This document shows positions 4,238 through 18,338 of a DNA stretch of 64,000 nucleotides, piece by piece. The translations under genes were made by a program, and so were the position numbers. This stretch comes from an uncultured Clostridia bacterium (GTDB taxonomy: Bacteria > Bacillota > Clostridia > TANB77 > CAG-508). The notes beneath the pieces are model-generated. The model saw nothing but the letters and a program-made list of their open reading frames with translations. It searched no databases and had not been told where the DNA came from. The stretch covers positions 7,837 to 71,836 of the forward strand of contig CANQYS010000001.1 in the NCBI GenBank assembly GCA_947628115.1, given 5' to 3'. How positions within the stretch are numbered: position 1 is the first letter of the stretch; every line of letters starts with the position of its first letter.

Positions 4238-5878
4238 ATGCAAATTAAATATGACAATACTGTAATAGATGTAAAAAAAGGTACAAAAGTAATAGATTTA
4301 TTTAGTCAGGAAATAAGCAAAAGTAATAATGAAATAATAGCTTGCAAATTTAATAATGAGGTAAAAAGTCTTAATTATGAAATAAATACAGATGGAGAAT
4401 TAGAATTAATAGATATAAAAAATAAAGATGGAATGAGAATATATAAGAGGGGACTGATATATATAGTTTCTAAAGCTTTTAATGAATTATATCCAAAAGC
4501 TTTACTTACAGTTAATTTTCAATTATATCATTCAATGTTATGTGATATAGATAACATAACATTAACAGATGAAATGATACAAAATGTTGATAAACGTGTA
4601 AAAGAAATAATAAATAAAAATATTCCAATTACAAAAAAAATAATACCTAAAGAAGAGGCTGAAGTATTTTATAATAAGGAAAAAACTTTAAAAGGAAGAC
4701 TACAATTAGATTTAAAAGATAAAAAAGAAGTAACTTTGTATTGTTGTGAAGATTATTATAATTATTTTTATGGTGTAATGCCAATTTCTACAGGATGCAT
4801 AAAAGAATATGAAGTATTAAATTACAAAGGAAGAATTTTAATTAGATATCCAAGCAGAAAAAATCCATATATTTTACCTGAATTTATAGAATGTCCTAAG
4901 CTTTTAGAAACACTTGATGAGTATGAAAAAGTTCACAAAATTCTTAATATAAATACTTTATATAAATTGAATAAGCTAATAAAAAAAGGAAATATAAAAG
5001 ACTATATTTTATTAGATGAAGCATTGCATGAGAAAAAAATAGCTAAAATAGCAGATGAAATTTCAAATAGAAAAGAAACAAAAGTAGTACTTATTGCAGG
5101 ACCTTCTTCATCTGGAAAAACTACGTTTGCAAAAAGACTAGAACTAGAATTAAGACTAAATGGACTAAAAACAAAAACAATATCAGTTGATAATTATTTT
5201 GTAGAAAGAGAAGATACGCCAAAAAATGAAAATGGAGAATATGATTTTGAGGCAATAGAAGCAATAGATACAAAGCTTTTAAATAATGATTTAATAAAGT
5301 TATTAAATGGTAAAGAAATAAAAATGCCAACATTTAATTTTCACGAAGGAAAAAAAGAATTTAAGGGAAATACAATGAAACTTGCAGAAGACGAAATTTT
5401 AATAATGGAAGGAATTCATTGTTTAAATGATAAACTTACATTTTTAATACCAAAAGAACAAAAATATAAAATTTATATTAGTTGTTTAACAGTGCTAAAT
5501 ATAGATTATTATAATAGAATTTCAACAACTGACACAAGATTAATAAGAAGAATAGTAAGAGACAATCAATTTAGGGGATATAGCGCTCTGCATACTTTAA
5601 AAATGTGGCCATCTGTAAATAAAGGAGAAGCAAAAAATATATTTACTTATCAAGAAGAAGCTGATGTAATGTTTAATTCATCTTTAATATATGAACTAAG
5701 TGTATTAAAAAATTATGCAATTCCATTATTAAAAGAAATAAAACAACAAGAACCTGAATATTCTGAAGCTAAAAGATTAATATCTATGTTAGAATATTTT
5801 GAAACAATATCGTCAAAATTTATTCTAAAAAATTCTCTCCTTAGAGAATTTATAGGTAATAGTATATTTGATGAATAG
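4238..5878 (+). CDS. uridine kinase-family ATPase with N-terminal TGS-like domain
   Basis: Walker A GPSSSGKTTF and the uridine kinase/PRK fold motif IMEGIH. The ATG at 4238 is preferred because RBS GGAGGA lies 7 nt upstream. Confidence 0.7.
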   Translation: MQIKYDNTVIDVKKGTKVIDLFSQEISKSNNEIIACKFNNEVKSLNYEINTDGELELIDIKNKDGMRIYKRGLIYIVSKAFNELYPKALLTVNFQLYHSMLCDIDNITLTDEMIQNVDKRVKEIINKNIPITKKIIPKEEAEVFYNKEKTLKGRLQLDLKDKKEVTLYCCEDYYNYFYGVMPISTGCIKEYEVLNYKGRILIRYPSRKNPYILPEFIECPKLLETLDEYEKVHKILNINTLYKLNKLIKKGNIKDYILLDEALHEKKIAKIADEISNRKETKVVLIAGPSSSGKTTFAKRLELELRLNGLKTKTISVDNYFVEREDTPKNENGEYDFEAIEAIDTKLLNNDLIKLLNGKEIKMPTFNFHEGKKEFKGNTMKLAEDEILIMEGIHCLNDKLTFLIPKEQKYKIYISCLTVLNIDYYNRISTTDTRLIRRIVRDNQFRGYSALHTLKMWPSVNKGEAKNIFTYQEEADVMFNSSLIYELSVLKNYAIPLLKEIKQQEPEYSEAKRLISMLEYFETISSKFILKNSLLREFIGNSIFDE

Positions 5879-8176: not shown

Positions 8177-9076
8177 TTATCTTATATTTTGTAAAGCTTC
8201 AATTCTATCATCTATGCTTGGATGTGTAGAAAATAAACCAGCTTTTTTCTTACCATTAGCATTCTTTTTAAAAGGATTTATAATGTACATATTTTCTGTT
8301 GCTTTGTTTGCAAATTTTAATTCGTTAGGATCTTCATCTAATTTTCTTAAAGCTGATATTAATCCATCAGGATTTCTAGTAAATTCTACTGCTGTACTAT
8401 CTGCTAAGAATTCCCTTCTTCTTGAGACAGCCATTTGCATTATTTTTCCAAGTATTGGAGCAAATATTAAAAAGATTAAACCTATCAACATGAGTATGCC
8501 ACTTCCACTATTATCATTATCTTTGTTCCTATTACCTCTATAGATAAAAGTTCTAGTAAAAATATCAGAAAGCATTACTATAAAACCAACCATTACAGTT
8601 ACAACAGCTGAAAGTAATATATCATAATTCTTTATGTGAGCCATTTCATGAGCAATAACACCTTCTAATTCATAATATTCTAATTTATCTAAAAGGCCAG
8701 TAGTTACACAAATAATAGAGTGTTCTGGATTTCTACCTGTTGCAAAAGCATTGGGTTGACTATCATCAACAACATATAATCTTGGCTTATAAGAAAGTCC
8801 AGAGGATATCATAAGTCCATCTAGAATATTAATAATTTTTTTGTGCTCTTCTACAGTTGCAGGTCTTGCATGAGAAACAGATAAAATAATTTTATCACTG
8901 TTATAATATGTTGCCCAACAACTTAGAATAGAAAATAATAGTGAAATAAATATTGCAAATGATGCATCTAAATCAAATGTCATACATAAATAATATAAAA
9001 TTAAAGTTATTATTAAAATAAAACCAGAAACAATAAAACCAGTTTTCATTTTATTTCTTCTAACATCTTCTAACAT
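8177..9076 (-). CDS. htpX: zinc metalloprotease HtpX (M48)
   Basis: TM helices, HEMAHIKNYD zinc motif and C-terminal STHPSIDDRI. The ATG at 9076 is preferred because RBS AGGTGA lies upstream. Confidence 0.85.
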   Translation of the reverse strand: MLEDVRRNKMKTGFIVSGFILIITLILYYLCMTFDLDASFAIFISLLFSILSCWATYYNSDKIILSVSHARPATVEEHKKIINILDGLMISSGLSYKPRLYVVDDSQPNAFATGRNPEHSIICVTTGLLDKLEYYELEGVIAHEMAHIKNYDILLSAVVTVMVGFIVMLSDIFTRTFIYRGNRNKDNDNSGSGILMLIGLIFLIFAPILGKIMQMAVSRRREFLADSTAVEFTRNPDGLISALRKLDEDPNELKFANKATENMYIINPFKKNANGKKKAGLFSTHPSIDDRIEALQNIR

Positions 9077-9404
9077 ATTTATCACCTAATAACATTATAA
9101 CATTATTATAATTTAAATACAAATATAAGTTTAAAAAATTTAATATAATTAGGTATTACAGTTAAGTAAGTAATAGAAAAATACTTCTCCAGCTAACGAA
9201 AATATTCCATGAACGATTTAATATGCCCTGTAATAAAATGTAGTATATGAAAAAAATCTAATGTATAAGTTTTCATATAAAACATCAATGTGAAGGAATT
9301 AATTAAAATTATAAAAATATATTGCAAAATAAATTAATATAAATATATAATTATAAAGTAAAAAATATTTATTAAAGCAATTAATTGCTAAAAATGGAGG
9401 GTAT

Positions 9405-12051: not shown

Positions 12052-12429
12052 ATGTATAGAAATTATATGCAAGCAAGAACTTGTTGTTCATGCAATTGTT
12101 CATCTAAAAGTAATTCATGCAATAATAACAAAGACAAAGATATAATAGATGATACTTGCGAATGTGTTCAAAACATGATGGATAATAGTGATTCATGTGA
12201 ATGTGGATTTGATGAAGACAATTTATTTCCAAGCAATCCTATGTATGCACAAAGCTATGTACCATGGCAAACAATGGATAAAACATTTACTCCGTGTGTG
12301 GGTTTAAAAATGGGAACAATATTTCCAGAATTAGTTAGTCCATATATGCCAGGACAATCAATGGAAGAAATTGAATATATTAGAAGAACAAATAAAATAG
12401 GAGAGGGGTGCAACAAATATGGAATGTAA
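12052..12429 (+). CDS. cotJA: spore coat-associated protein CotJA
   Basis: Conserved YVPWQ....GTIFPEL motif. Strong RBS AGGAGG. First gene of the cotJABC arrangement. Confidence 0.8.
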   Translation: MYRNYMQARTCCSCNCSSKSNSCNNNKDKDIIDDTCECVQNMMDNSDSCECGFDEDNLFPSNPMYAQSYVPWQTMDKTFTPCVGLKMGTIFPELVSPYMPGQSMEEIEYIRRTNKIGEGCNKYGM

Positions 12430-12718
12430 TGAAGACATTGAAAATAGAAATAATTGTTCAAACAACAATGACAATAGAAGACGTGAAATGATTGAGCAAA
12501 TAAAATGTTTGAATTTTGCAGTAATTGAACTTGGTCTATATTTGGATACACATCCTGAAGATCAAAAAGCATTATGTATGCATAGAGAATATTGCAAACA
12601 GTTAAAAGACTTAAAAGATAAATATCAAAAAATGTATGGGCCACTTTCAATTTATTACCCATGCAACAAATGGAGATGGCTAGAAGAACCATGGCCTTGG
12701 GAAAGGGGGAATTATTAA
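12419..12718 (+). CDS. cotJB: spore coat protein CotJB
   Basis: FAVIELGLYLDTHPEDQKAL...YGPL signature. Overlaps cotJA, and its stop overlaps the cotJC ATG (TAATG). Confidence 0.8.
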   Translation: MECNEDIENRNNCSNNNDNRRREMIEQIKCLNFAVIELGLYLDTHPEDQKALCMHREYCKQLKDLKDKYQKMYGPLSIYYPCNKWRWLEEPWPWERGNY

Positions 12719-12817
12719 TGTGGACCTATAATAAAGTATTAGAATATCCAATAAATATAAAATGTCCAAATCCAAGACTTGCAAAATTTATAATATCACA
12801 ATATGGTGGACCTGATG
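12718..12817 (+). CDS. cotJC: cotJC (manganese-catalase-family spore coat protein), 5' fragment (codons 1-33), interrupted by the element
   Basis: MWTYNKVLEYPINIKCPNPRLAKFIISQYGGPD matches the CotJC N-terminus. The frame then runs into element DNA and stops after 5 codons. The continuation GELAASLRYL is at 23885. Confidence 0.85.
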
Positions 12818-12831
12818 AACAACTGATTTTA
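12805..12831. other. attL junction of the cotJC intervening element
   Basis: The cotJC sequence ends at CCTGATG. The element-side arm CAACTGATTTTA (12820-12831) is the exact inverted complement of 23865-23876. Confidence 0.75.
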
Positions 12832-12880
12832 TGATGCACATCAAATTAATCGCTACCTATAGCCATTTCTAAGCATTTTC

Positions 12881-12985
12881 TATGCCATACCCCGACAAAA
12901 TCATACGCAAAAATCGGAGAGTAAAACTCGTTCGAGTTCTACTCTCCTTGCTTTTTGCATTTTGTCAATTAAGGGGTATGGCATA
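12881..12985. other. long imperfect hairpin (about 105 nt) at the left end of the element
   Basis: Nested arms TATGCCATACCCC/GGGGTATGGCATA, GACAAAAT/ATTTTGTC, GCAAAAA/TTTTTGC and GGAGAGTA/TACTCTCC. Confidence 0.7.
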
Positions 12986-12996
12986 ATATGGCTTTA

Positions 12997-13863
12997 TCAA
13001 GCCCCCAAATTTTCAAGCTGTTCAATTCTCTTTGAGGTATAAGGGTGAGACGCTTTCAGTCGTTCCGTCAGCGTTGCTTTGCCATGAAATGAAATCTTAT
13101 CAATAATATAAAGTGAATTTTTCAACTCCGTTCCATAGCCTATCAAAAAGGCGTATTCATCGGCTAACAATTCGCTGTGTCTGCTGTTTAAAGCAATAAA
13201 AACATCTCCCGAAAAAACGAAAAGGAAAATTGCTGTGTCAAAAAAAAGTCTTGACATAAACAGAACAAAAGAAATAACTACAATCACAATATTTTTACCG
13301 CTCAGCATATTAGAAATTGTCTGAGCGATAAACGCGCATAAACGCAGTACCAGAACAATAACCGTAAAAAATCCGTTGCCGACTGATTTAATAAGCAACG
13401 CCGTTGTATCGCCATTTACAATATGACCGAATTCATGGGCAAGAATACCCTTTAACTCTTCGCGGGTAAATGTTTCCATTGCTCCCCTTGTAACGGCTAT
13501 CGTATGCCGACCCATGGCAAACGCATTAACCGTCATAGTATCCGCTATGTAAAGTTTAATATCCTTATTGAGGTTTGGCGTATATTGCAACGCGTCCACA
13601 TAAACCTCCTCAAATATCGGCAAAAGATAGTCTTTGTCTGTTTGCGTCTGAACAGGTCTTACACCCTCTAAAAGTCTTGCAGTTATTTCACCTAAAGGAG
13701 ATACCGAAAAAGCAACCGATATGCCGTACAACAACACGGCAATAAGCAAGCTTAATAAAACATTTTGAATAAAAATATACAGAATTAAAACAGCAAAAGA
13801 AAAATAGAAAACAAACCAAATCAAATACGCCCAATTTGATTTAAAAAAACCGCCGTTTCTCAT
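12997..13863 (-). CDS. M48-family zinc metallopeptidase (membrane)
   Basis: HEFGHIVNGD zinc motif, several TM helices and C-terminal SHPYTSKRI. The ATG at 13863 is preferred because RBS AAAGGTGG lies upstream. Confidence 0.75.
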   Translation of the reverse strand: MRNGGFFKSNWAYLIWFVFYFSFAVLILYIFIQNVLLSLLIAVLLYGISVAFSVSPLGEITARLLEGVRPVQTQTDKDYLLPIFEEVYVDALQYTPNLNKDIKLYIADTMTVNAFAMGRHTIAVTRGAMETFTREELKGILAHEFGHIVNGDTTALLIKSVGNGFFTVIVLVLRLCAFIAQTISNMLSGKNIVIVVISFVLFMSRLFFDTAIFLFVFSGDVFIALNSRHSELLADEYAFLIGYGTELKNSLYIIDKISFHGKATLTERLKASHPYTSKRIEQLENLGA

Positions 13864-14024
13864 AGAGAACCACCTTTCGCTAATATAGTTTTTCATTTAC
13901 CCCTTAATTCCAGTACAATACGGGTTTTGCGGTTGCTGTCAAGGGCGGTCGCAGACCGTTTATTTTACCCTTGACTGCGAGTGCAAAATCCGTTAAACTT
14001 TTTCAGGGGTAAATGTAAAACGGA

Positions 14025-15416
14025 CTAAAACGGTTTGTTTATTGTTATGTACGAATGAAAATTACTGTCCTTTGACATAAAAATTCCCTCACCTGTTTGA
14101 AGTCGTTTAATATCATCTGGGTGGTAATAAAACTCTCGGACACGTCTTGCACTTCCTAAACCTGTTTCAGAGGTTTCAAATATTCCGTTTTGCTTTAACT
14201 GATATGTAACATCAATTGTCGGCCTTGTTCCCAATACATTCGCCCAATGCTCGGAATTAACGGCGCTGTTCTGTCGGAGAACAATATAATTGTTCGTATT
14301 TTCAATAACCTGTTCTTTAAACGTTTCATTACAGGCAAAATCCAAATCGGATAAACTCTGGGTAGCAAGAATAGAAGTAATATTTGCACTTCTTGACTTA
14401 TTGATTAAATCTATTAAAGCCGTTGAAACATAAGTATTAATCTCATCAAAGATATAAAACGCTCTTTCAAGCCCCGTACCAAAGCACTTATTAACCGCCT
14501 GTTTTGCGTCTATTAAAACCAATCTTCCCATAATCGGCGTAATTTCGGGATAAAGCAACGGATTAAGAATAAACAGTATAACCGCATTTTCTTTTATCGC
14601 CGTATAAACGTCTATCCCGTCATCGGCAAAAATACCGCCGAATTCGCTTTCGGCAATCGTCCCAAACCTTGCCGTTGCACTTCCCGCTATTTTTCCGCTT
14701 ATTTCCGCAATATCAATATTTAAACTATGTTCCGATTTGGATATTTTGCCGACTTTTAAAAGATATGCGCTTAACGCTTTGAAACGCTCAACAGGGATAT
14801 TATCAATAATTGTTTTTAAAGATAATTGCTTGTCCGCTTGTTTTAAAAGCATAATCAGCTTTTGCAAATATCTTTCTGTATTTAATTTATAGTGTTCCTC
14901 GCTCCAATCAGTCATATTAATTAACATGTCCTTGCACATGGTCGGCGTAGCATTTTTGAACGGATTGTATTTTGCAGACTTCTCAGGCTCGGCAAGCGAA
15001 ACAACGTACAATTTCTTTTTCCCTTTGCAAAAACGCTTTGTAACTTCAAGAATAGAACCGTTGCCCATATCGCCCTTTCCGTCAACAATAAGCAAGGGAT
15101 AGTCTTTTTCAATACCATGCTTAATAAAATTGGATAACGCAACAGTTTTTCCGCTACCTGTTGTACCGCATATAAAACAATGCTTACAATCGTCGGGAAT
15201 ATAAACCGCCTTTTTATGGGCAAGTCCTATAAATGTTCCTGTGCAATCCTTTGAAAACGGCGTTTTACTTTTCTTATTCATGCGTTTCAGTTCTTTCCAA
15301 AAATTAAAATGCCTTTTGACTGTTAAATTTCTTCTGATACTTAAAAATATAAAGAAAAATGCAATTAAGATAATACAAGTAAATATATAATCGGCATATT
15401 TGTCAATGCCGTTCAA
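14025..15416 (-). CDS. type IV coupling protein-like ATPase (TraG/TraD/VirD4 superfamily)
   Basis: N-terminal TM helix, Walker A GTTGSGKT and Walker B-like FYIFDEIN. The TTG start overlaps the stop of the upstream gene, suggesting translational coupling. Confidence 0.7.
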   Translation of the reverse strand: MNGIDKYADYIFTCIILIAFFFIFLSIRRNLTVKRHFNFWKELKRMNKKSKTPFSKDCTGTFIGLAHKKAVYIPDDCKHCFICGTTGSGKTVALSNFIKHGIEKDYPLLIVDGKGDMGNGSILEVTKRFCKGKKKLYVVSLAEPEKSAKYNPFKNATPTMCKDMLINMTDWSEEHYKLNTERYLQKLIMLLKQADKQLSLKTIIDNIPVERFKALSAYLLKVGKISKSEHSLNIDIAEISGKIAGSATARFGTIAESEFGGIFADDGIDVYTAIKENAVILFILNPLLYPEITPIMGRLVLIDAKQAVNKCFGTGLERAFYIFDEINTYVSTALIDLINKSRSANITSILATQSLSDLDFACNETFKEQVIENTNNYIVLRQNSAVNSEHWANVLGTRPTIDVTYQLKQNGIFETSETGLGSARRVREFYYHPDDIKRLQTGEGIFMSKDSNFHSYITINKPF

Positions 15417-16066
15417 ATAATTTCATTAAGTCCATTTTTTACCTCCGTAAATTCAATAATTCTTATGTTATGATAATCATTTTTCTTGTTTGCAAGGTAA
15501 GTTGATATTTTAGAATTAAAATCGGGAACAATCCAGAATTGAATATGATAATCCATAAAATCAGAAATGATATTTTTCTCAAATCGTCCCTTTGATTTTA
15601 AATTTAATTCAACCTCAACGCAGAACGATTTTTGACTTTTCTTAAAAACAAAATCGGGTCTGTGTCTGCGTATGCCAAAACCGTCCTGCTTGTGCAATTG
15701 CTTTTCCGTTATCATATCGGAAAAAGCAATTGCATATTTACGATTAAAATATATAGCTGTATCTAATACGGCAATATCATGTATAATTTGTTCTGCTCGT
15801 ATACGCCCCGTCTTATCGGGAACGCCGATTAAAGCTTTTCCCGAAGATGTAAGGGAATAAAGGCTCGGAACGCCGTATAATATTTTTTGTCTTGCTATAT
15901 AATCTGCGCTAAGCAGTTTATTAAGTCTTCTGTCGCATGTCCTAAGAGAGGGAAAACCCGCTAAAACCGTAATATGTCTGCCTGTTACGGCTCGCCACCT
16001 GTAAATTTCATTAAGTATTAAATAGTCGCGTTCAACTAATCTTAGCTTATCCACACTCACCACCAC
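15413..16066 (-). CDS. replication-relaxation family protein (putative relaxase or accessory protein)
   Basis: Winged-helix-like N-terminus LTERDYLILNEIYRWRAVT-type pattern followed by a nuclease-like C-terminus, typical of PF13814 proteins that pair with T4CPs in Firmicutes. Confidence 0.6.
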   Translation of the reverse strand: MVVSVDKLRLVERDYLILNEIYRWRAVTGRHITVLAGFPSLRTCDRRLNKLLSADYIARQKILYGVPSLYSLTSSGKALIGVPDKTGRIRAEQIIHDIAVLDTAIYFNRKYAIAFSDMITEKQLHKQDGFGIRRHRPDFVFKKSQKSFCVEVELNLKSKGRFEKNIISDFMDYHIQFWIVPDFNSKISTYLANKKNDYHNIRIIEFTEVKNGLNEII

Positions 16067-16368
16067 GCAAAAATATGAAACAACATGTATCTTTGTATTA
16101 TTGTATGAGCATAAGAGAAAAATAGAACAATATATAAGTACCTGTGGAATGTATCTGCAATTGCTTATCGTTCACAAATCGAAATGCAATTGCAGAAACA
16201 AAGAAAGAAACAGCCGTTATGATACGGCAATATTGTATACGTAACAACGCATACCGTCAGTTACTGACAGTGCTTTTTCCGTTAGGGCGTGTTACACGGT
16301 TCGGCGAAATTCTGCAAGCGTAACGCTAAAGAATTTCGCCGAACAAAAGCTGAATAAATCCTCACAGG

Positions 16369-16530
16369 TACTATACAACTACAACTTACTACTAACAACA
16401 ACTACTAAACAATCTACTACAACTTACTACTATACTACTAATAATTACTACTAAACGAACTACAACAACAAGCTAAACAAAATAATACAAATATAAAAAA
16501 ATATATAAAATAAAAACATAAAAAAACACA
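16369..16530 (+). other. G-depleted (C/A/T-only) tract with degenerate direct repeats
   Basis: Only 2 G in 162 nt. Contains repeated CTACAACTTACTACTA and TTACTACTAAAC units. There is no ORF on either strand. Confidence 0.8.
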
Positions 16531-16660
16531 GCAACAGCACAACACACGAGATGAGATGTTACTCCATGATGAGAGAGTGAGGTCTCGGGAAATTTGCCGA
16601 GACCTCACTCTCTCGGAGGAACAGCGAAACCGTGTGTTACAGGGCGGTTGCTGTGTTTTT
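16522..16660. other. compound hairpin of about 138 nt (candidate bidirectional terminator, oriT or structured RNA)
   Basis: Outer stem AAAAACACAGCAAC/GTTGCTGTGTTTTT, middle stem AACACACG/CGTGTGTT, and a perfect 18-bp inner stem GAGAGAGTGAGGTCTCGG/CCGAGACCTCACTCTCTC with an 8-nt loop. Confidence 0.8.
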
Positions 16661-16695
16661 CATTTATAATTTTTTATTTTATATGTACCGATGTA

Positions 16696-16734
16696 GAAAG
16701 TACAGTTTTGTATCATCTTGAAAGTACAGTTTTG
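16696..16734 (+). repeat. two 15-bp direct repeats GAAAGTACAGTTTTG
   Basis: Exact copies at 16696-16710 and 16720-16734. A TACCGATGTA motif also recurs at about 16687 and 16808. Confidence 0.8.
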
Positions 16735-16830
16735 ATATAAAAAATCAAGAACAGACAAGCAAGAATACACTTATCCGTTCTAAAGAAATAACATATTGAA
16801 TATCATATACCGATGTAAACAGATATATAC

Positions 16831-16860
16831 TTTTTCGCAAAGTTTCTAACTTTGCGAAAA
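16831..16860. promoter_or_regulatory. lox-like recombination site, left (arms TTTTCGCAAAG/CTTTGCGAAAA, spacer TTTCTAA)
   Basis: 11-13-bp inverted arms flank an asymmetric 7-bp spacer. The partner site at 18218-18250 has the reverse-complement spacer TTAGAAA. Confidence 0.6.
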
Positions 16861-16885
16861 CCAAAAATCGCCGATTTCTGATTTC

Positions 16886-16914
16886 ATATTACACTAAATA
16901 TAATAAAATGTCAA
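16886..16914 (-). promoter_or_regulatory. consensus sigma-A-type promoter facing left (TTGACA-17-TAATAT)
   Basis: On the minus strand, TTGACA (16914..16909), a 17-nt spacer, then TAATAT (16891..16886). It lies about 25 nt inside the left lox-like site. Confidence 0.6.
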
Positions 16915-16997
16915 TAAAATTATCCAAAGCTAAAGAAAAAATAAAGCATATAATTACATAATGAAATAAAATGCCTTTAAAAATAATAGTTTTTATT

Positions 16998-17024
16998 CTA
17001 TTAGGGGTCAAAAATGGGGTCAAA
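16998..17024 (+). repeat. 27-bp direct repeat CTATTAGGGGTCAAAAATGGGGTCAAA, copy 1
   Basis: Exact second copy at 18142-18168. Contains a tandem GGGGTCAAA motif. Confidence 0.9.
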
Positions 17025-17050
17025 AATTTAAGTGAAAGGATAAAAATCAA

Positions 17051-18148
17051 ATGCCGAAAAGAGGGGAAAATATACGCAAACGAAAAGACGGTCGCTGGGA
17101 AGCCCGATATATTACAGAAGACGGAAAACGCAAATCAATATATTCAAAAAGCTATTCCGAATTAAAGCAAAAACTAAGAACAGATACGGAAGAAAAAGCA
17201 CCGACAGAGCCTACCATTGAAACTAATGTAGATACATCTTTTATTAAGATATGCGAACTATGGCTGAAAGAAAAGGAAATCAAAAACAAAAGGTCAACGT
17301 TTGCGAGATACCGAGAAATCATATATAAGCATTTAATACCGTACTTTTCCGATTGTCCGATTTCAAGAGACAGTATTAATACATTCATTATAAACAAATC
17401 AAATACAGAGAATTTACAGGAAAAGACCGTATATGATATTGTAACCGTACTTATGCAAATCATTAAATACGGCGTTAATATGGGACATATACAGGATTTC
17501 AACTATGGCATATCAAGACCGACTATTCACAAAAAAGAACTTGAAGTATTGACGGAAGATGAACAAAAAAAGCTTGTAAATTATATAAAACAGACTGTTA
17601 CCTATGAAAATATAGGTATTCTTTTATCCCTTTATTCAGGATTGAGAATAGGTGAAATATGTGCCTTGAAATGGCAGGACATAGATATTAATTCGGGAAC
17701 AATATCAATAACAAAAACAATGCAAAGAATATCTGTAGCGGATAATAAATCAGATATTAAAACAGCAGTTATTACAGATACTCCGAAAAGTCAGAAATCA
17801 ATCAGAACAATACCCATTCCCGATTTTTTGAAAACGGAACTAAAAAGGCTGTCAAAAAATTGTTTACCCTCCGCCTATGTTCTTACCGCCAGTGAAACGA
17901 AATACACCGAACCGAGAACATACCAGTACAAATTTAAAAAATATCTTGAACAAGCGGGGATAAGAAACATCAATTTTCATGCGTTAAGACATACGTTTGC
18001 GACAAGAGCAATTGAACAAAATATTGATATAAAAGTATTAAGCGAAATTCTCGGACACTCGACAATTAATTTCACATTGGAAAGATATGTACACATCTCT
18101 TTAAGCTTTAAAAAGCAGAATATTGAAAAATTGAATGTTTGCTATTAG
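17051..18148 (+). CDS. tyrosine recombinase / site-specific integrase (Tn916-like, with arm-binding N-terminal domain)
   Basis: N-terminus KRKDGRWEARY (AP2-like arm-binding domain). C-terminus carries ALRHTFATRA....LGHS......RYVH with the catalytic R, H..R and Y. Confidence 0.9.
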   Translation: MPKRGENIRKRKDGRWEARYITEDGKRKSIYSKSYSELKQKLRTDTEEKAPTEPTIETNVDTSFIKICELWLKEKEIKNKRSTFARYREIIYKHLIPYFSDCPISRDSINTFIINKSNTENLQEKTVYDIVTVLMQIIKYGVNMGHIQDFNYGISRPTIHKKELEVLTEDEQKKLVNYIKQTVTYENIGILLSLYSGLRIGEICALKWQDIDINSGTISITKTMQRISVADNKSDIKTAVITDTPKSQKSIRTIPIPDFLKTELKRLSKNCLPSAYVLTASETKYTEPRTYQYKFKKYLEQAGIRNINFHALRHTFATRAIEQNIDIKVLSEILGHSTINFTLERYVHISLSFKKQNIEKLNVCY

Positions 18149-18168
18149 GGGTCAAAAATGGGGTCAAA
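18142..18168 (+). repeat. 27-bp direct repeat, copy 2 (contains the integrase stop codon)
   Basis: Identical to 16998-17024. A third GGGGGTCAAAAGG motif is at 18251-18263. Confidence 0.9.
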
Positions 18169-18186
18169 CCAAAAGGAAAAACGGGC

Positions 18187-18223
18187 GAGAGCAAGCAATA
18201 TAGCCACTTTTGCTCTCTTTTTT
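18187..18223 (+). terminator. rho-independent terminator after the integrase gene
   Basis: GAGAGCAA/TTGCTCTC stem followed by TTTTTT. The T-run is also the left arm of the right lox-like site. Confidence 0.6.
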
Positions 18224-18250
18224 CGCAAAGTTAGAAACTTTGCGAAAAAA
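18218..18250. promoter_or_regulatory. lox-like recombination site, right (spacer TTAGAAA, inverted relative to the left site)
   Basis: Same arms as 16831-16860 with the central 7-bp spacer reverse-complemented. Lies 88 nt upstream of the surface-protein ATG. Confidence 0.6.
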
Positions 18251-18338
18251 GGGGGTCAAAAGGCTTTTATTATTATTCCCATACTTTGCGAAAATTATAC
18301 AATAAATTGTCGAAAATTTTAAGGAGGTACGCAAACAA

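Follow-up and report, generated by a model that had tools for sequence, protein, structure and literature searches.

The window analyzed here, a 64,000-nt stretch of clostridial DNA, contains a gene for a tyrosine recombinase (henceforth, the integrase) that is enclosed by two inverted copies of one palindromic site. A promoter-like sequence facing outward lies within the enclosed segment, and the gene for a 1189-residue surface protein begins just beyond it. Does this arrangement constitute a genetic switch? We consider it probable that positions 16831-18249 form a self-contained invertible promoter cassette that switches the surface-protein gene. The anatomy of the cassette is conserved across a large family, and both of its orientations occur among relatives, including in an element homologous to the one that carries the cassette in the window. 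From these observations, we infer that the segment also switches at the window locus, that its predicted promoter and terminators are active, that the integrase binds the accessory repeats described below, and that a phenotype results.

The sites that bound the segment (the core sites) match each other perfectly. A repeat finder returned a 30-nt inverted repeat (16831-16860 / 18220-18249) whose copies are 100% complementary and have 1359 nt between them. Both sites are themselves palindromic, with the left one reading TTTTCGCAAAGTT-TCT-AACTTTGCGAAAA and the right one reading the same with AGA in the center. The 29-nt pattern of the site had no third match in the 64-kb window (0.00 expected from 100 shuffles), and the window's core sites have no target-site duplication beside them. 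An earlier note on this DNA, made from its letters alone, had described inverted sites around the integrase gene; the perfect repeat and the reverse-complemented central sequences bear out that description. Because the 7-nt centers of related sites are asymmetric throughout (e.g., TTTACCC / GGGTAAA), we read the center of the site as a 7-nt overlap. An isolated core half-site, ACTTTGCGAAAA, which is absent from the earlier note, is located at 18283-18294, within the spacer of a weak promoter candidate of the surface-protein gene. Two other features at the right site deserve mention. A sub-threshold match of an Rfam miRNA model to this site was rejected as an artefact of the palindrome, and Rfam was otherwise without a match. 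A 54-residue open reading frame (ORF; 18158-18322), which is a gene call in the ENA record, crosses the site; it is probably not a real gene.

The promoter of the segment was located with a promoter scan (Table 1). The minus-strand match TTGACA-17-TAATAT that the earlier note had placed at 16914..16886 is present, its activity being a prediction. In the computed flipped state, this promoter occupies 18166-18194 on the plus strand, and its -10 element ends 25 nt from the right site. Outside of the left site is a terminator-like hairpin that the earlier note had missed; its fold has an energy of -17.7 kcal/mol (z=-5.2, with 0 of 200 shuffles as stable), and it is conserved in the related locus L006. 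The terminator that had been proposed after the integrase gene is also there, as a predicted hairpin followed by a U-run. Its counterpart in L006 has another stem sequence and folds at -25.8 kcal/mol (z=-7.5); the window and L006 are the two loci for which hairpins downstream of the integrase gene were folded. A strict terminator scan over the family returned 9 hits vs. 11 on the control strand, and it thus does not establish the integrase terminator family-wide.

The presumed target of the switch had been labeled a surface protease. Searches of its product against Pfam, NCBIfam, and the PDB sequences yielded no peptidase family match, so "protease" is at most a putative label. The protein does have a QSHG...GVCEG motif reminiscent of a His/Cys protease dyad, for which there was no family or PDB sequence match as a protease. 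After the dockerin come two hydrophobic, transmembrane-like segments, with the motif region further on (residues about 230-290 and 480-580).

Inversion itself is recorded in assemblies of related loci. Such loci came from exact-protein look-ups, from scanning GTDB genomes for the site pattern, and from scanning metagenome contigs with a protein profile; all locus counts given here include non-independent assemblies. The 400 nt beyond each site were compared across loci, with the integrase gene setting the direction of every locus, and whole-locus alignments followed. Five groups of near-identical metagenomic loci hold the cassette both ways (the left flank in one locus matches the reverse complement of the right flank in another, and vice versa), and the breakpoints are exactly at the sites. 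These groups are relatives of 36-41% identity. For L081 vs. L083, the cassettes are 99.86% identical, and the inverted flanks are 99.8-99.9% identical over the full alignment and 100% identical in the 400 nt beside each site. For L068/L071 vs. L069/L072, flanks of 4.8 kb and 3.2 kb (98-99% identity, L068 vs. L069; 99.4% for the 4.8-kb flank) are inverted around a 1474-nt cassette. The other groups with both orientations are L066/L067 vs. L070, L046 vs. L048/L087, and L054/L060 vs. L057/58/74/75. We consider mis-orientation by the assembler unlikely because the contigs derive from different samples and were assembled with k-mers longer than the repeats.

A single-nucleotide difference was observed in the outer arms of one of these pairs: a C/T difference follows the flank, not the cassette (L081 684-707 / 2116-2139 vs. 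L083 2814-2837 / 4246-4269). Since it stays with the flank, the exchange point lies inside the site.

A flipped cassette was also found in an element homologous to that of the window. In L195/L196 (P0030), the surface-protein gene is on the minus strand, the integrase gene is on the plus strand, and the genes for a Replic_Relax protein, a TcpA-like coupling protein, and an M48 peptidase are on the plus strand; that is, the cassette is flipped with respect to both flanks. The encoded proteins are 62% (integrase), 64% (Replic_Relax), 72% (TcpA-like), and 60% (M48) identical to those of the window, and the surface protein is 34% identical over 509 residues. In L195, a perfect TTGACA-17-TATAAT sequence reads into the surface-protein gene, whose ribosome-binding site/start codon is 38 nt outside the site. 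Logan contig L198, assembled in five samples of the same project, spans exactly from outer site edge to outer site edge. As its perfect repeat is only 21 nt long, shorter than k-1, the assembly graph branches at both site edges; these edges indicate mixed orientations, in an argument that depends on assembler behavior. L194 (67% identical; 56 member sequences, none of them from a contig above 1435 nt) ends exactly at the outer edge of the right site and extends just 8 nt past the left site. Two other candidate signals were rejected. That of L199 is ambiguous (its perfect repeat of 29 nt is close to the assembler's k-1), and the repeated 1618-nt contigs of P0076 represent a segment common to different flanking contexts instead of an inversion signature.

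How general is this architecture? Of 8000 scored candidates, 7409 proteins are homologues of the integrase at E<=1e-20, many of them encoded on contigs of only 1.3-1.45 kb. The metagenome profile scan gave at least 534 confirmed relatives, the best 80 of which were kept. An inverted repeat scoring at least 17 surrounds the integrase gene in 70 of 84 related loci (36-85% identity). Its left copy precedes the start codon by about 160-300 nt, and its right copy follows the stop codon by 60-120 nt; the loci without this flanking repeat are mostly contigs too short for flanks. Relatives from IMG/VR, mostly true phage integrases without the cassette architecture, served as a negative control. Among these 38 loci, 35 distant phage-type integrases reach scores of only 8-14, which is the chance level, at inconsistent positions, and the 3 that belong to the family have repeats scoring 23-27. 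Set against this control, the segment is, like an inverton, bounded by inverted recombinase target sites.

The core sites of the family have inverted arms of about 9 nt around an odd-length center. The center is 7 nt long in 30 of 54 distinct sites and mostly 5 or 9 nt long in the others, lengths that arise where the palindrome happens to shrink or extend. The arms vary by clade (CGCAAAG, CGTGAAG, CTTGAAG, CGCAGAG, CGTAGAA, CTTCCAT). In the window's clade, the overlaps are TTTCTAA, TTTATAA, TTTACCC, TTATCCA, and TTTCACA, and the left and right copies are always exact reverse complements. Such concerted change is what selection for strand exchange within a 7-nt overlap would predict, and it is not what one would expect from an operator model.

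The position of the promoter is likewise conserved. In the first 110 nt inside the left site, 65 of 70 loci have an outward sigma-70 match of at least 9/12, and 45 of 70 have one of at least 10; between the end of the -10 element and the site there are usually 24-42 nt. Controls scoring at least 10 numbered 0/70 on the opposite strand of the left end, and 2/70 and 3/70 on the two strands of the right end. Of 48 distinct loci, 43 have a gene start no more than 350 nt beyond the right site, in the same direction as the integrase gene. A start solely on the promoter side was seen in just three loci, two of which (L068 and L083) come from polymorphic groups. In several relatives, some 55-60 nt separate the site from the start of the right-hand gene, for which no promoter is recognizable. 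The layout described in the earlier note (inverted sites, an outward promoter, and a target gene outside the right site) is therefore conserved across a large family.

The genes next to the cassette differ among relatives. At the position of the surface-protein gene are unrelated large surface proteins (S8 protease+LRR, cadherin-like, WG_beta_rep). The outward promoter of L068 reads into a capsule operon (cpsB/capC) whose start is 34 nt from the site, and in L083 the cassette is beside a helicase gene. Comparisons of L171 with L174/L175 (diverging at L171 5293) and of the window with L006 revealed a conserved cassette and early leader followed by unrelated surface-protein ORFs. It seems, to judge from these comparisons, that recombination close behind the switch exchanges one target gene for another.

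The site-pattern scan of GTDB genomes produced three loci (L003, L004, and L005). L004 (Kordia) was rejected as a family site, as it looks like a chance palindrome. L003 6500-7900, from a Lachnospiraceae metagenome-assembled genome (MAG), holds a shorter, 327-residue member between rho and an unknown gene; the arms of its sites are the same as in the window and the centers are TAC / GTA, and it apparently has neither the N-terminal domain nor GGTCAA repeats. At L005 1580-2010 (a Faecalibacterium MAG), a homologous site and an outward promoter into a signal-peptide gene about 80 nt outside the site are present, and unrelated DNA takes the place of the integrase gene beyond its first 45 or so codons. 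This locus appears to be a remnant locked in the ON state.

The enzyme was examined by sequence and by structural modeling. As the earlier note had stated, the ORF within the cassette encodes a genuine tyrosine recombinase: the match to Phage_integrase (PF00589) has E=4.4e-30 and 105 bits (cut-off 27.1), its catalytic domain places the protein in that superfamily, and PF14659 is matched as well (E=1e-7). The catalytic set (R199, K246, H310, R313, H336, Y346) is invariant among 18 homologues and intact in the window. The most conserved part of the protein in those homologues is the set of N-terminal residues. In the AlphaFold2 (AF2) model (pLDDT 83), strands 8-10, 16-21, and 27-32 and helix 35-48 make up an N-terminal beta-beta-beta-alpha unit (residues 8-48), which is followed by a disordered linker, the core-binding domain, and the catalytic domain. 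The match to the DNA-binding domain of Tn916 Int (PF02920) is below the cut-off (E=1e-3; 19.4 bits vs. 27). The closest PDB sequence match is Tn1549 Int (E=1e-24), and the top fold matches from Foldseek are full-length lambda Int (1z1g, 368 aligned columns) and Tn1549 Int. An N-terminal arm-binding domain is thus supported by the modeled fold and weakly by the sequence.

The integrase accordingly has the domain order (three beta-strands and a helix, then a SAM-like domain) of the arm-binding, "complex" IntTn916-like integrases (PMC8138268). It differs from them in function, which for that group is integration/excision between direct core sites: its cores are inverted, and its relatives invert in place. 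No NCBIfam family reached its cut-off. The models of FimB/FimE-type invertases (NF007370/NF007371) gave 26.3 and 29.7 bits vs. cut-offs of 221 and 222, which places the integrase outside that family, and the cassette ORF is without the Resolvase domain of Hin/Gin serine invertases. No serine recombinase lies nearby other than the large one encoded at 22249-23838, which is not part of the cassette.

Consistent with an arm-binding enzyme, the cassette has putative arm-type repeats, which are not listed in the earlier note (Table 1). The motif GGGGTCAAA occurs in five copies, where 0.19 were expected. Two pairs are contained in 27-nt direct repeats on either side of the integrase gene, and the fifth copy is external. 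An external copy is also present in L006 and, beside one site, in the L054/L074 group. Many clades have tandem (G/T)GGTCAA repeats at matching positions, directly ahead of the start codon and directly behind the stop codon; their spacing is 11-12 nt, and the strand is always that of the integrase gene. These repeats are probably the binding sites of the N-terminal domain, and the pair ahead of the start codon may have a further role in autoregulation of the integrase gene. The arm repeats are unequally far from the cores (143 vs. 51 nt). Further, the external copy at 18252 would stay put on inversion, so the two states would be structurally unequal. No Xis-like gene was seen in the cassette.

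Table 1. Features of the cassette and its surroundings in the window
Feature	Position	Strand	Remarks
Left "parking" terminator-like hairpin + T-run	16738..16781	-	just outside left site; terminator scan and RNA fold
Left core site	16831..16860	.	arms TTTTTCGCAAAG / CTTTGCGAAAA flanking overlap TTTCTAA; perfect 30-nt inverted repeat
Invertible segment	16861..18219	.	1359 bp between the core sites; holds the outward promoter, the arm-type repeats, the integrase gene, and its terminator
Outward sigma-70-type promoter (predicted)	16886..16914	-	TTGACA-17-TAATAT; predicted start near 16879; promoter scan
Arm-type repeat pair 1	16998..17024	+	CTATTAGGGGTCAAAAATGGGGTCAAA, 27-53 nt upstream of integrase start codon; exact 27-nt direct repeat of 18142-18168
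Tyrosine recombinase (integrase) gene	17051..18148	+	365 residues; arm-binding, core-binding (SAM-like), and catalytic domains; Pfam and AF2 model
Arm-type repeat pair 2	18142..18168	+	overlaps integrase stop codon; direct orientation vs. pair 1
Integrase terminator-like hairpin + U6	18175..18224	+	U-run overlaps outer T-run of right site
Right core site	18220..18249	.	exact reverse complement of left site; overlap TTAGAAA
Fifth GGGGTCAAA copy	18252..18260	+	abuts right site from outside, off the cassette
Candidate own promoter of surface-protein gene	18276..18303	+	TTCCCA-16-TACAAT, weak, 9/12 (promoter scan)
Presumed target gene	18339..21908	+	1189-residue secreted/surface protein: signal peptide, DUF11-like repeat, dockerin, CarboxypepD_reg (Pfam, translation)
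cotJA	12052-12429
cotJB	12419-12718
cotJC 5' short ORF	12661-12834
M48 peptidase gene of element	12997-13896	-
Large serine recombinase gene	22249-23838		abuts cotJC 3' part
cotJC 3' part	23929-24384		Mn_catalase, profile positions 52-197

Several points weigh against a functioning switch at the window locus. The inversion that the earlier note had proposed is seen at the level of the family, in the five groups and in L195/L196, but all assemblies of the exact element that cover the cassette have one orientation: no flipped copy was found, and the window, L001 (= L191), L002, and L192 agree. These orientations come from exact-protein look-ups of the integrase, the Replic_Relax protein, and the TcpA-like protein, which returned same-orientation contigs only; L002, with 1492 nt, reaches just 43 and 30 nt past the sites and is uninformative on heterogeneity. 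In the mobile-element clade to which the window belongs, about 40 contigs have the orientation seen in the window (which we term "parked"), and only L195/L196 (about 6 samples) are flipped. Switching may hence be rare, conditional, or directionally biased, and consensus assemblies cannot yield its frequency. The asymmetric 7-bp spacer of the earlier note applies to relatives, in which the whole center is asymmetric, but in the window only the central 3 of 7 positions are. The integrase terminator is only moderately stable (-15.4 kcal/mol, z=-2.2). Finally, the region of the weak promoter candidate upstream of the surface-protein gene is conserved in L006, and such a promoter may mean that the switch modulates expression of this gene rather than gating it.

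Taken to their conclusion, these points would make the cassette of the mobile-element clade a frozen or effectively one-way relic, descended from an invertible cassette but with no meaningful rate of switching left; the surface-protein gene would then rely on a promoter of its own or on read-through out of the integrase gene. We regard this as unlikely, if the most serious of the alternatives. It draws on the uniformly parked contigs, on the candidate promoter and the moderate terminator, and on L192, a variant with a frameshifted integrase gene in the same orientation. A relic would nonetheless not be expected to retain a perfect 30-nt repeat and invariant catalytic residues, nor overlaps that co-vary in both sites within the clade (window, L011, L007, L023, L012); moreover, the homologous element was assembled flipped, and cassette-only contigs stop at the site edges. 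Together, the perfection of the repeat, the co-variation of the overlaps, the catalytic residues, and the flipped homologue indicate continuing selection for recombination.

As an observation in its own right, L192 (ERZ27249041) is otherwise identical to window positions 12982-17924, and its 47-nt deletion corresponds to window 17437-17483. It is either a natural integrase-null variant locked in the parked state or an assembly error.

The surroundings of the cassette suggest another candidate for control. An integrative mobilizable element of about 11 kb, which spans roughly 12.85-23.9 kb and interrupts the spore-coat gene cotJC, carries the cassette. In order, the element has the genes for the M48 peptidase, the TcpA-like coupling protein, and the Replic_Relax protein (all on the minus strand), the cassette, the surface-protein gene, and the gene for a large serine recombinase. 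Relatives (L174, L181-L189) are inserted in cotJC, too. Gene-intervening elements occur in other sporulation genes, and the interruption of cotJC resembles those. Most simply, the element integrates by means of its serine recombinase; with integration so assigned, the tyrosine recombinase would be free to act as a dedicated invertase.

Could the switch mainly control transfer, with the outward promoter feeding the minus-strand Replic_Relax/coupling-protein/M48 operon and inversion disconnecting it? The promoter does face this operon in the window, L006, L007, L018, L037, and others. About 765 nt separate the site from the operon, however, and they include the left terminator (z=-5.2) and a hairpin of -54.9 kcal/mol. 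In other arrangements, the cassette instead has on its left a cotJC gene that is truncated, a convergent operon (3' end), or a gene for a serine recombinase. As the left neighbor varies, the transfer operon is no constant partner of the cassette, whereas a surface-protein gene on the other side is. We thus judge control of transfer to be improbable, more so than a relic.

Several non-coding features were observed on this side of the cassette. The hairpin just mentioned (window 16540-16650; -54.9 kcal/mol, z=-9.1) is located between the Replic_Relax gene and the cassette and has no Rfam match; its core, GGTCTCGG...CCGAGACC, recurs at the same place in L006, L007, and L195. The hairpin is a candidate for an origin of transfer or for some other structured element. 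Window 16369-16470, which precedes the Replic_Relax gene, consists of AT-rich non-coding DNA with degenerate tandem repeats rich in TACTAC/TACAAC, which are also present in L006. The left flank (16683-16734 and 16805-16822) has the direct repeats GAAAGTACAGTTTTG (two copies, 24 nt apart) and ATxTACCGATGTAxAxAG (two copies), conserved in L006; they may be binding sites of a regulator. A second gene for an M48-family peptidase (window 8177-9085) is outside the mobile element.

That the 1.4-kb unit transposes, as a small element with terminal inverted repeats that is moved rather than inverted by its recombinase, is very improbable. The unit does occur in unrelated contexts (mobile elements, rho in L003, a capsule operon in L068, and a helicase gene in L083), and many assemblies have cassette-only contigs. 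By established mechanism, though, inverted sites and a tyrosine recombinase give inversion, not excision; there is no target-site duplication and a single copy in the window, and near-identical flanks with opposite cassette orientations signify inversion in place. Least credible of all is the notion that the palindromes are repressor operators whose inverted arrangement is incidental: each site is a near-perfect palindrome, and an extra half-site occupies the spacer of the surface-protein gene's candidate promoter, but in all 54 distinct family sites, as well as in the window and L003, the non-palindromic centers are exact reverse complements, and the orientation polymorphisms break exactly at the sites, such that this explanation, which the earlier note had named as one that would overturn its proposal, is essentially refuted unless the polymorphisms are assembly errors.

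Returning to the invertible promoter cassette, we propose the following mechanism. The integrase would bind the two core sites, each composed of inverted arms of 9-12 nt around the 7-nt overlap, and its N-terminal domain would probably also bind the tandem GGTCAA repeats on either side of its gene. Synapsis of the cores and exchange across the overlap would invert 16861-18219; because the two overlaps are reverse-complementary, the 1359-bp segment would be inverted, not excised. In the parked state found in the window, the putatively strong promoter would transcribe from a start near 16879 across the left site into the terminator (16781-16748) about 100 nt on. The surface-protein gene, behind the integrase terminator and with at most a weak promoter of its own, would be OFF or low. 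In the flipped state, the promoter hexamers would lie at 18166-18171 and 18189-18194, and transcription from a start near 18201 would cross the right site and reach the gene at 18339 after a leader of about 138 nt, turning the gene ON. We speculate that the unequal distances of the arm repeats and the fixed copy at 18252 may bias the direction of inversion and account for the dominance of the parked state.

A broader reading, which we advance tentatively as plausible, is that Clostridia of the gut and rumen harbor a large and as yet undescribed family of autonomous "flip cassettes" to which these loci belong. Each would resemble an integrated element reduced to its minimum, with the order core - arm sites - integrase - arm sites - core, in which the two att cores have come to be inverted; its lambda/Tn916-type integrase would hence flip itself and the outward promoter rather than excise. 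Retention of the arm-binding domain and the asymmetry of the arm sites would make switching directional or conditional, which would account for the strong excess of the parked state. Such cassettes would gate surface proteins on mobilizable elements, and capsule operons and other genes elsewhere. The hypervariable surface proteins that they gate could be mating or colonization adhesins.

Invertible promoters are a main source of surface variation in gut bacteria, and catalogues made with tools for short invertons center on segments that measure a few hundred bases and whose recombinase is encoded outside. A 1.4-kb, self-encoded switch would be missed if the default size limits of such tools are below 1 kb. 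The family is common, and many assemblies break exactly at its sites. If our proposal is correct, arm-binding integrases, now taken as markers of mobile-element integration, can be dedicated invertases, which affects the automated annotation of mobile elements. The cassettes would also lend themselves, as a natural system, to studies of how arm sites give inversion a direction and, as a portable switch that is compact and self-contained, to the engineering of Firmicutes. Finally, phase-variable surface proteins of mobile elements would bear on colonization and conjugative mating.

How does the cassette compare with known systems? A literature search returned no published description of such a cassette, which is no proof of novelty. 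Reviews place recombinases "near or inside" invertible regions with no more specific statement, and one notes that they occasionally reside inside the switch, citing Hin (PMC5903667). A survey of invertons in gut communities described Clostridia invertons of about 200 bp with adjacent recombinases, not cassettes of the window type. The closest parallel in layout is Hin/hix of Salmonella (and Gin, Cin, and Pin), where the recombinase and an outward promoter also lie inside the segment and a surface-structure gene outside is connected or disconnected. Hin, however, is a small serine recombinase with a Fis-bound enhancer, and its promoter is downstream of and co-directional with hin; the window cassette has a tyrosine recombinase, and its promoter diverges from the recombinase gene at the opposite end.

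The FimB/FimE-fimS system of E. coli, RecV at cwpV/flgB of Clostridioides difficile, and Tsr/Mpi of Bacteroides (all with tyrosine recombinases except Mpi, a serine recombinase) also invert promoter segments between inverted repeats to vary surface structures, and their OFF state is often dominant. Their enzymes are two-domain, "simple" recombinases encoded outside switches of 150-400 bp, whereas the window has an arm-binding enzyme inside a 1.4-kb switch with arm-type repeats on both sides. Cre/loxP and Flp/FRT share the palindromic arms, the asymmetric spacer that sets orientation, and the outcome of inversion between inverted sites. They have 8-bp spacers, no accessory sites, and no arm-binding domain, in contrast to the 7-nt overlap and conserved accessory repeats of the cassette. 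The likeness to loxP/FRT drawn in the earlier note consequently holds for the architecture of the sites but not for the enzyme, a three-domain, arm-binding integrase with accessory repeats rather than a simple one of the Cre/Flp kind.

The arm-binding domain has been linked to mobile-element integration (Smyshlyaev et al. 2021, PMC8138268). With lambda Int and Tn916/Tn1549 Int, the window integrase has in common three domains, a 7-nt core overlap, and separate, in its case putative, arm-type repeats, and the layout of the cassette resembles a minimal integrated element with attL and attR. It departs from these systems in that its cores are inverted, it has no cargo except the promoter, and its element is presumably integrated by a separate serine recombinase. 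The Rci shufflon of R64 is likewise a case of an integrase-clade member recruited to vary a surface structure on a mobile element. Rci has lost its arm-binding domain (PMC8138268) and acts on multiple sfx sites in coding sequence, while the window integrase retains the domain and would flip a promoter between two full intergenic sites. With these two sites and one half-site, the cassette is distinct from a shufflon, in which at least three sites shuffle coding segments. By analogy, then, the logic of the window switch may be likened to that of Hin combined with fimS/cwpV, and its enzyme class and accessory sites to those of the lambda/Tn916 integrases.

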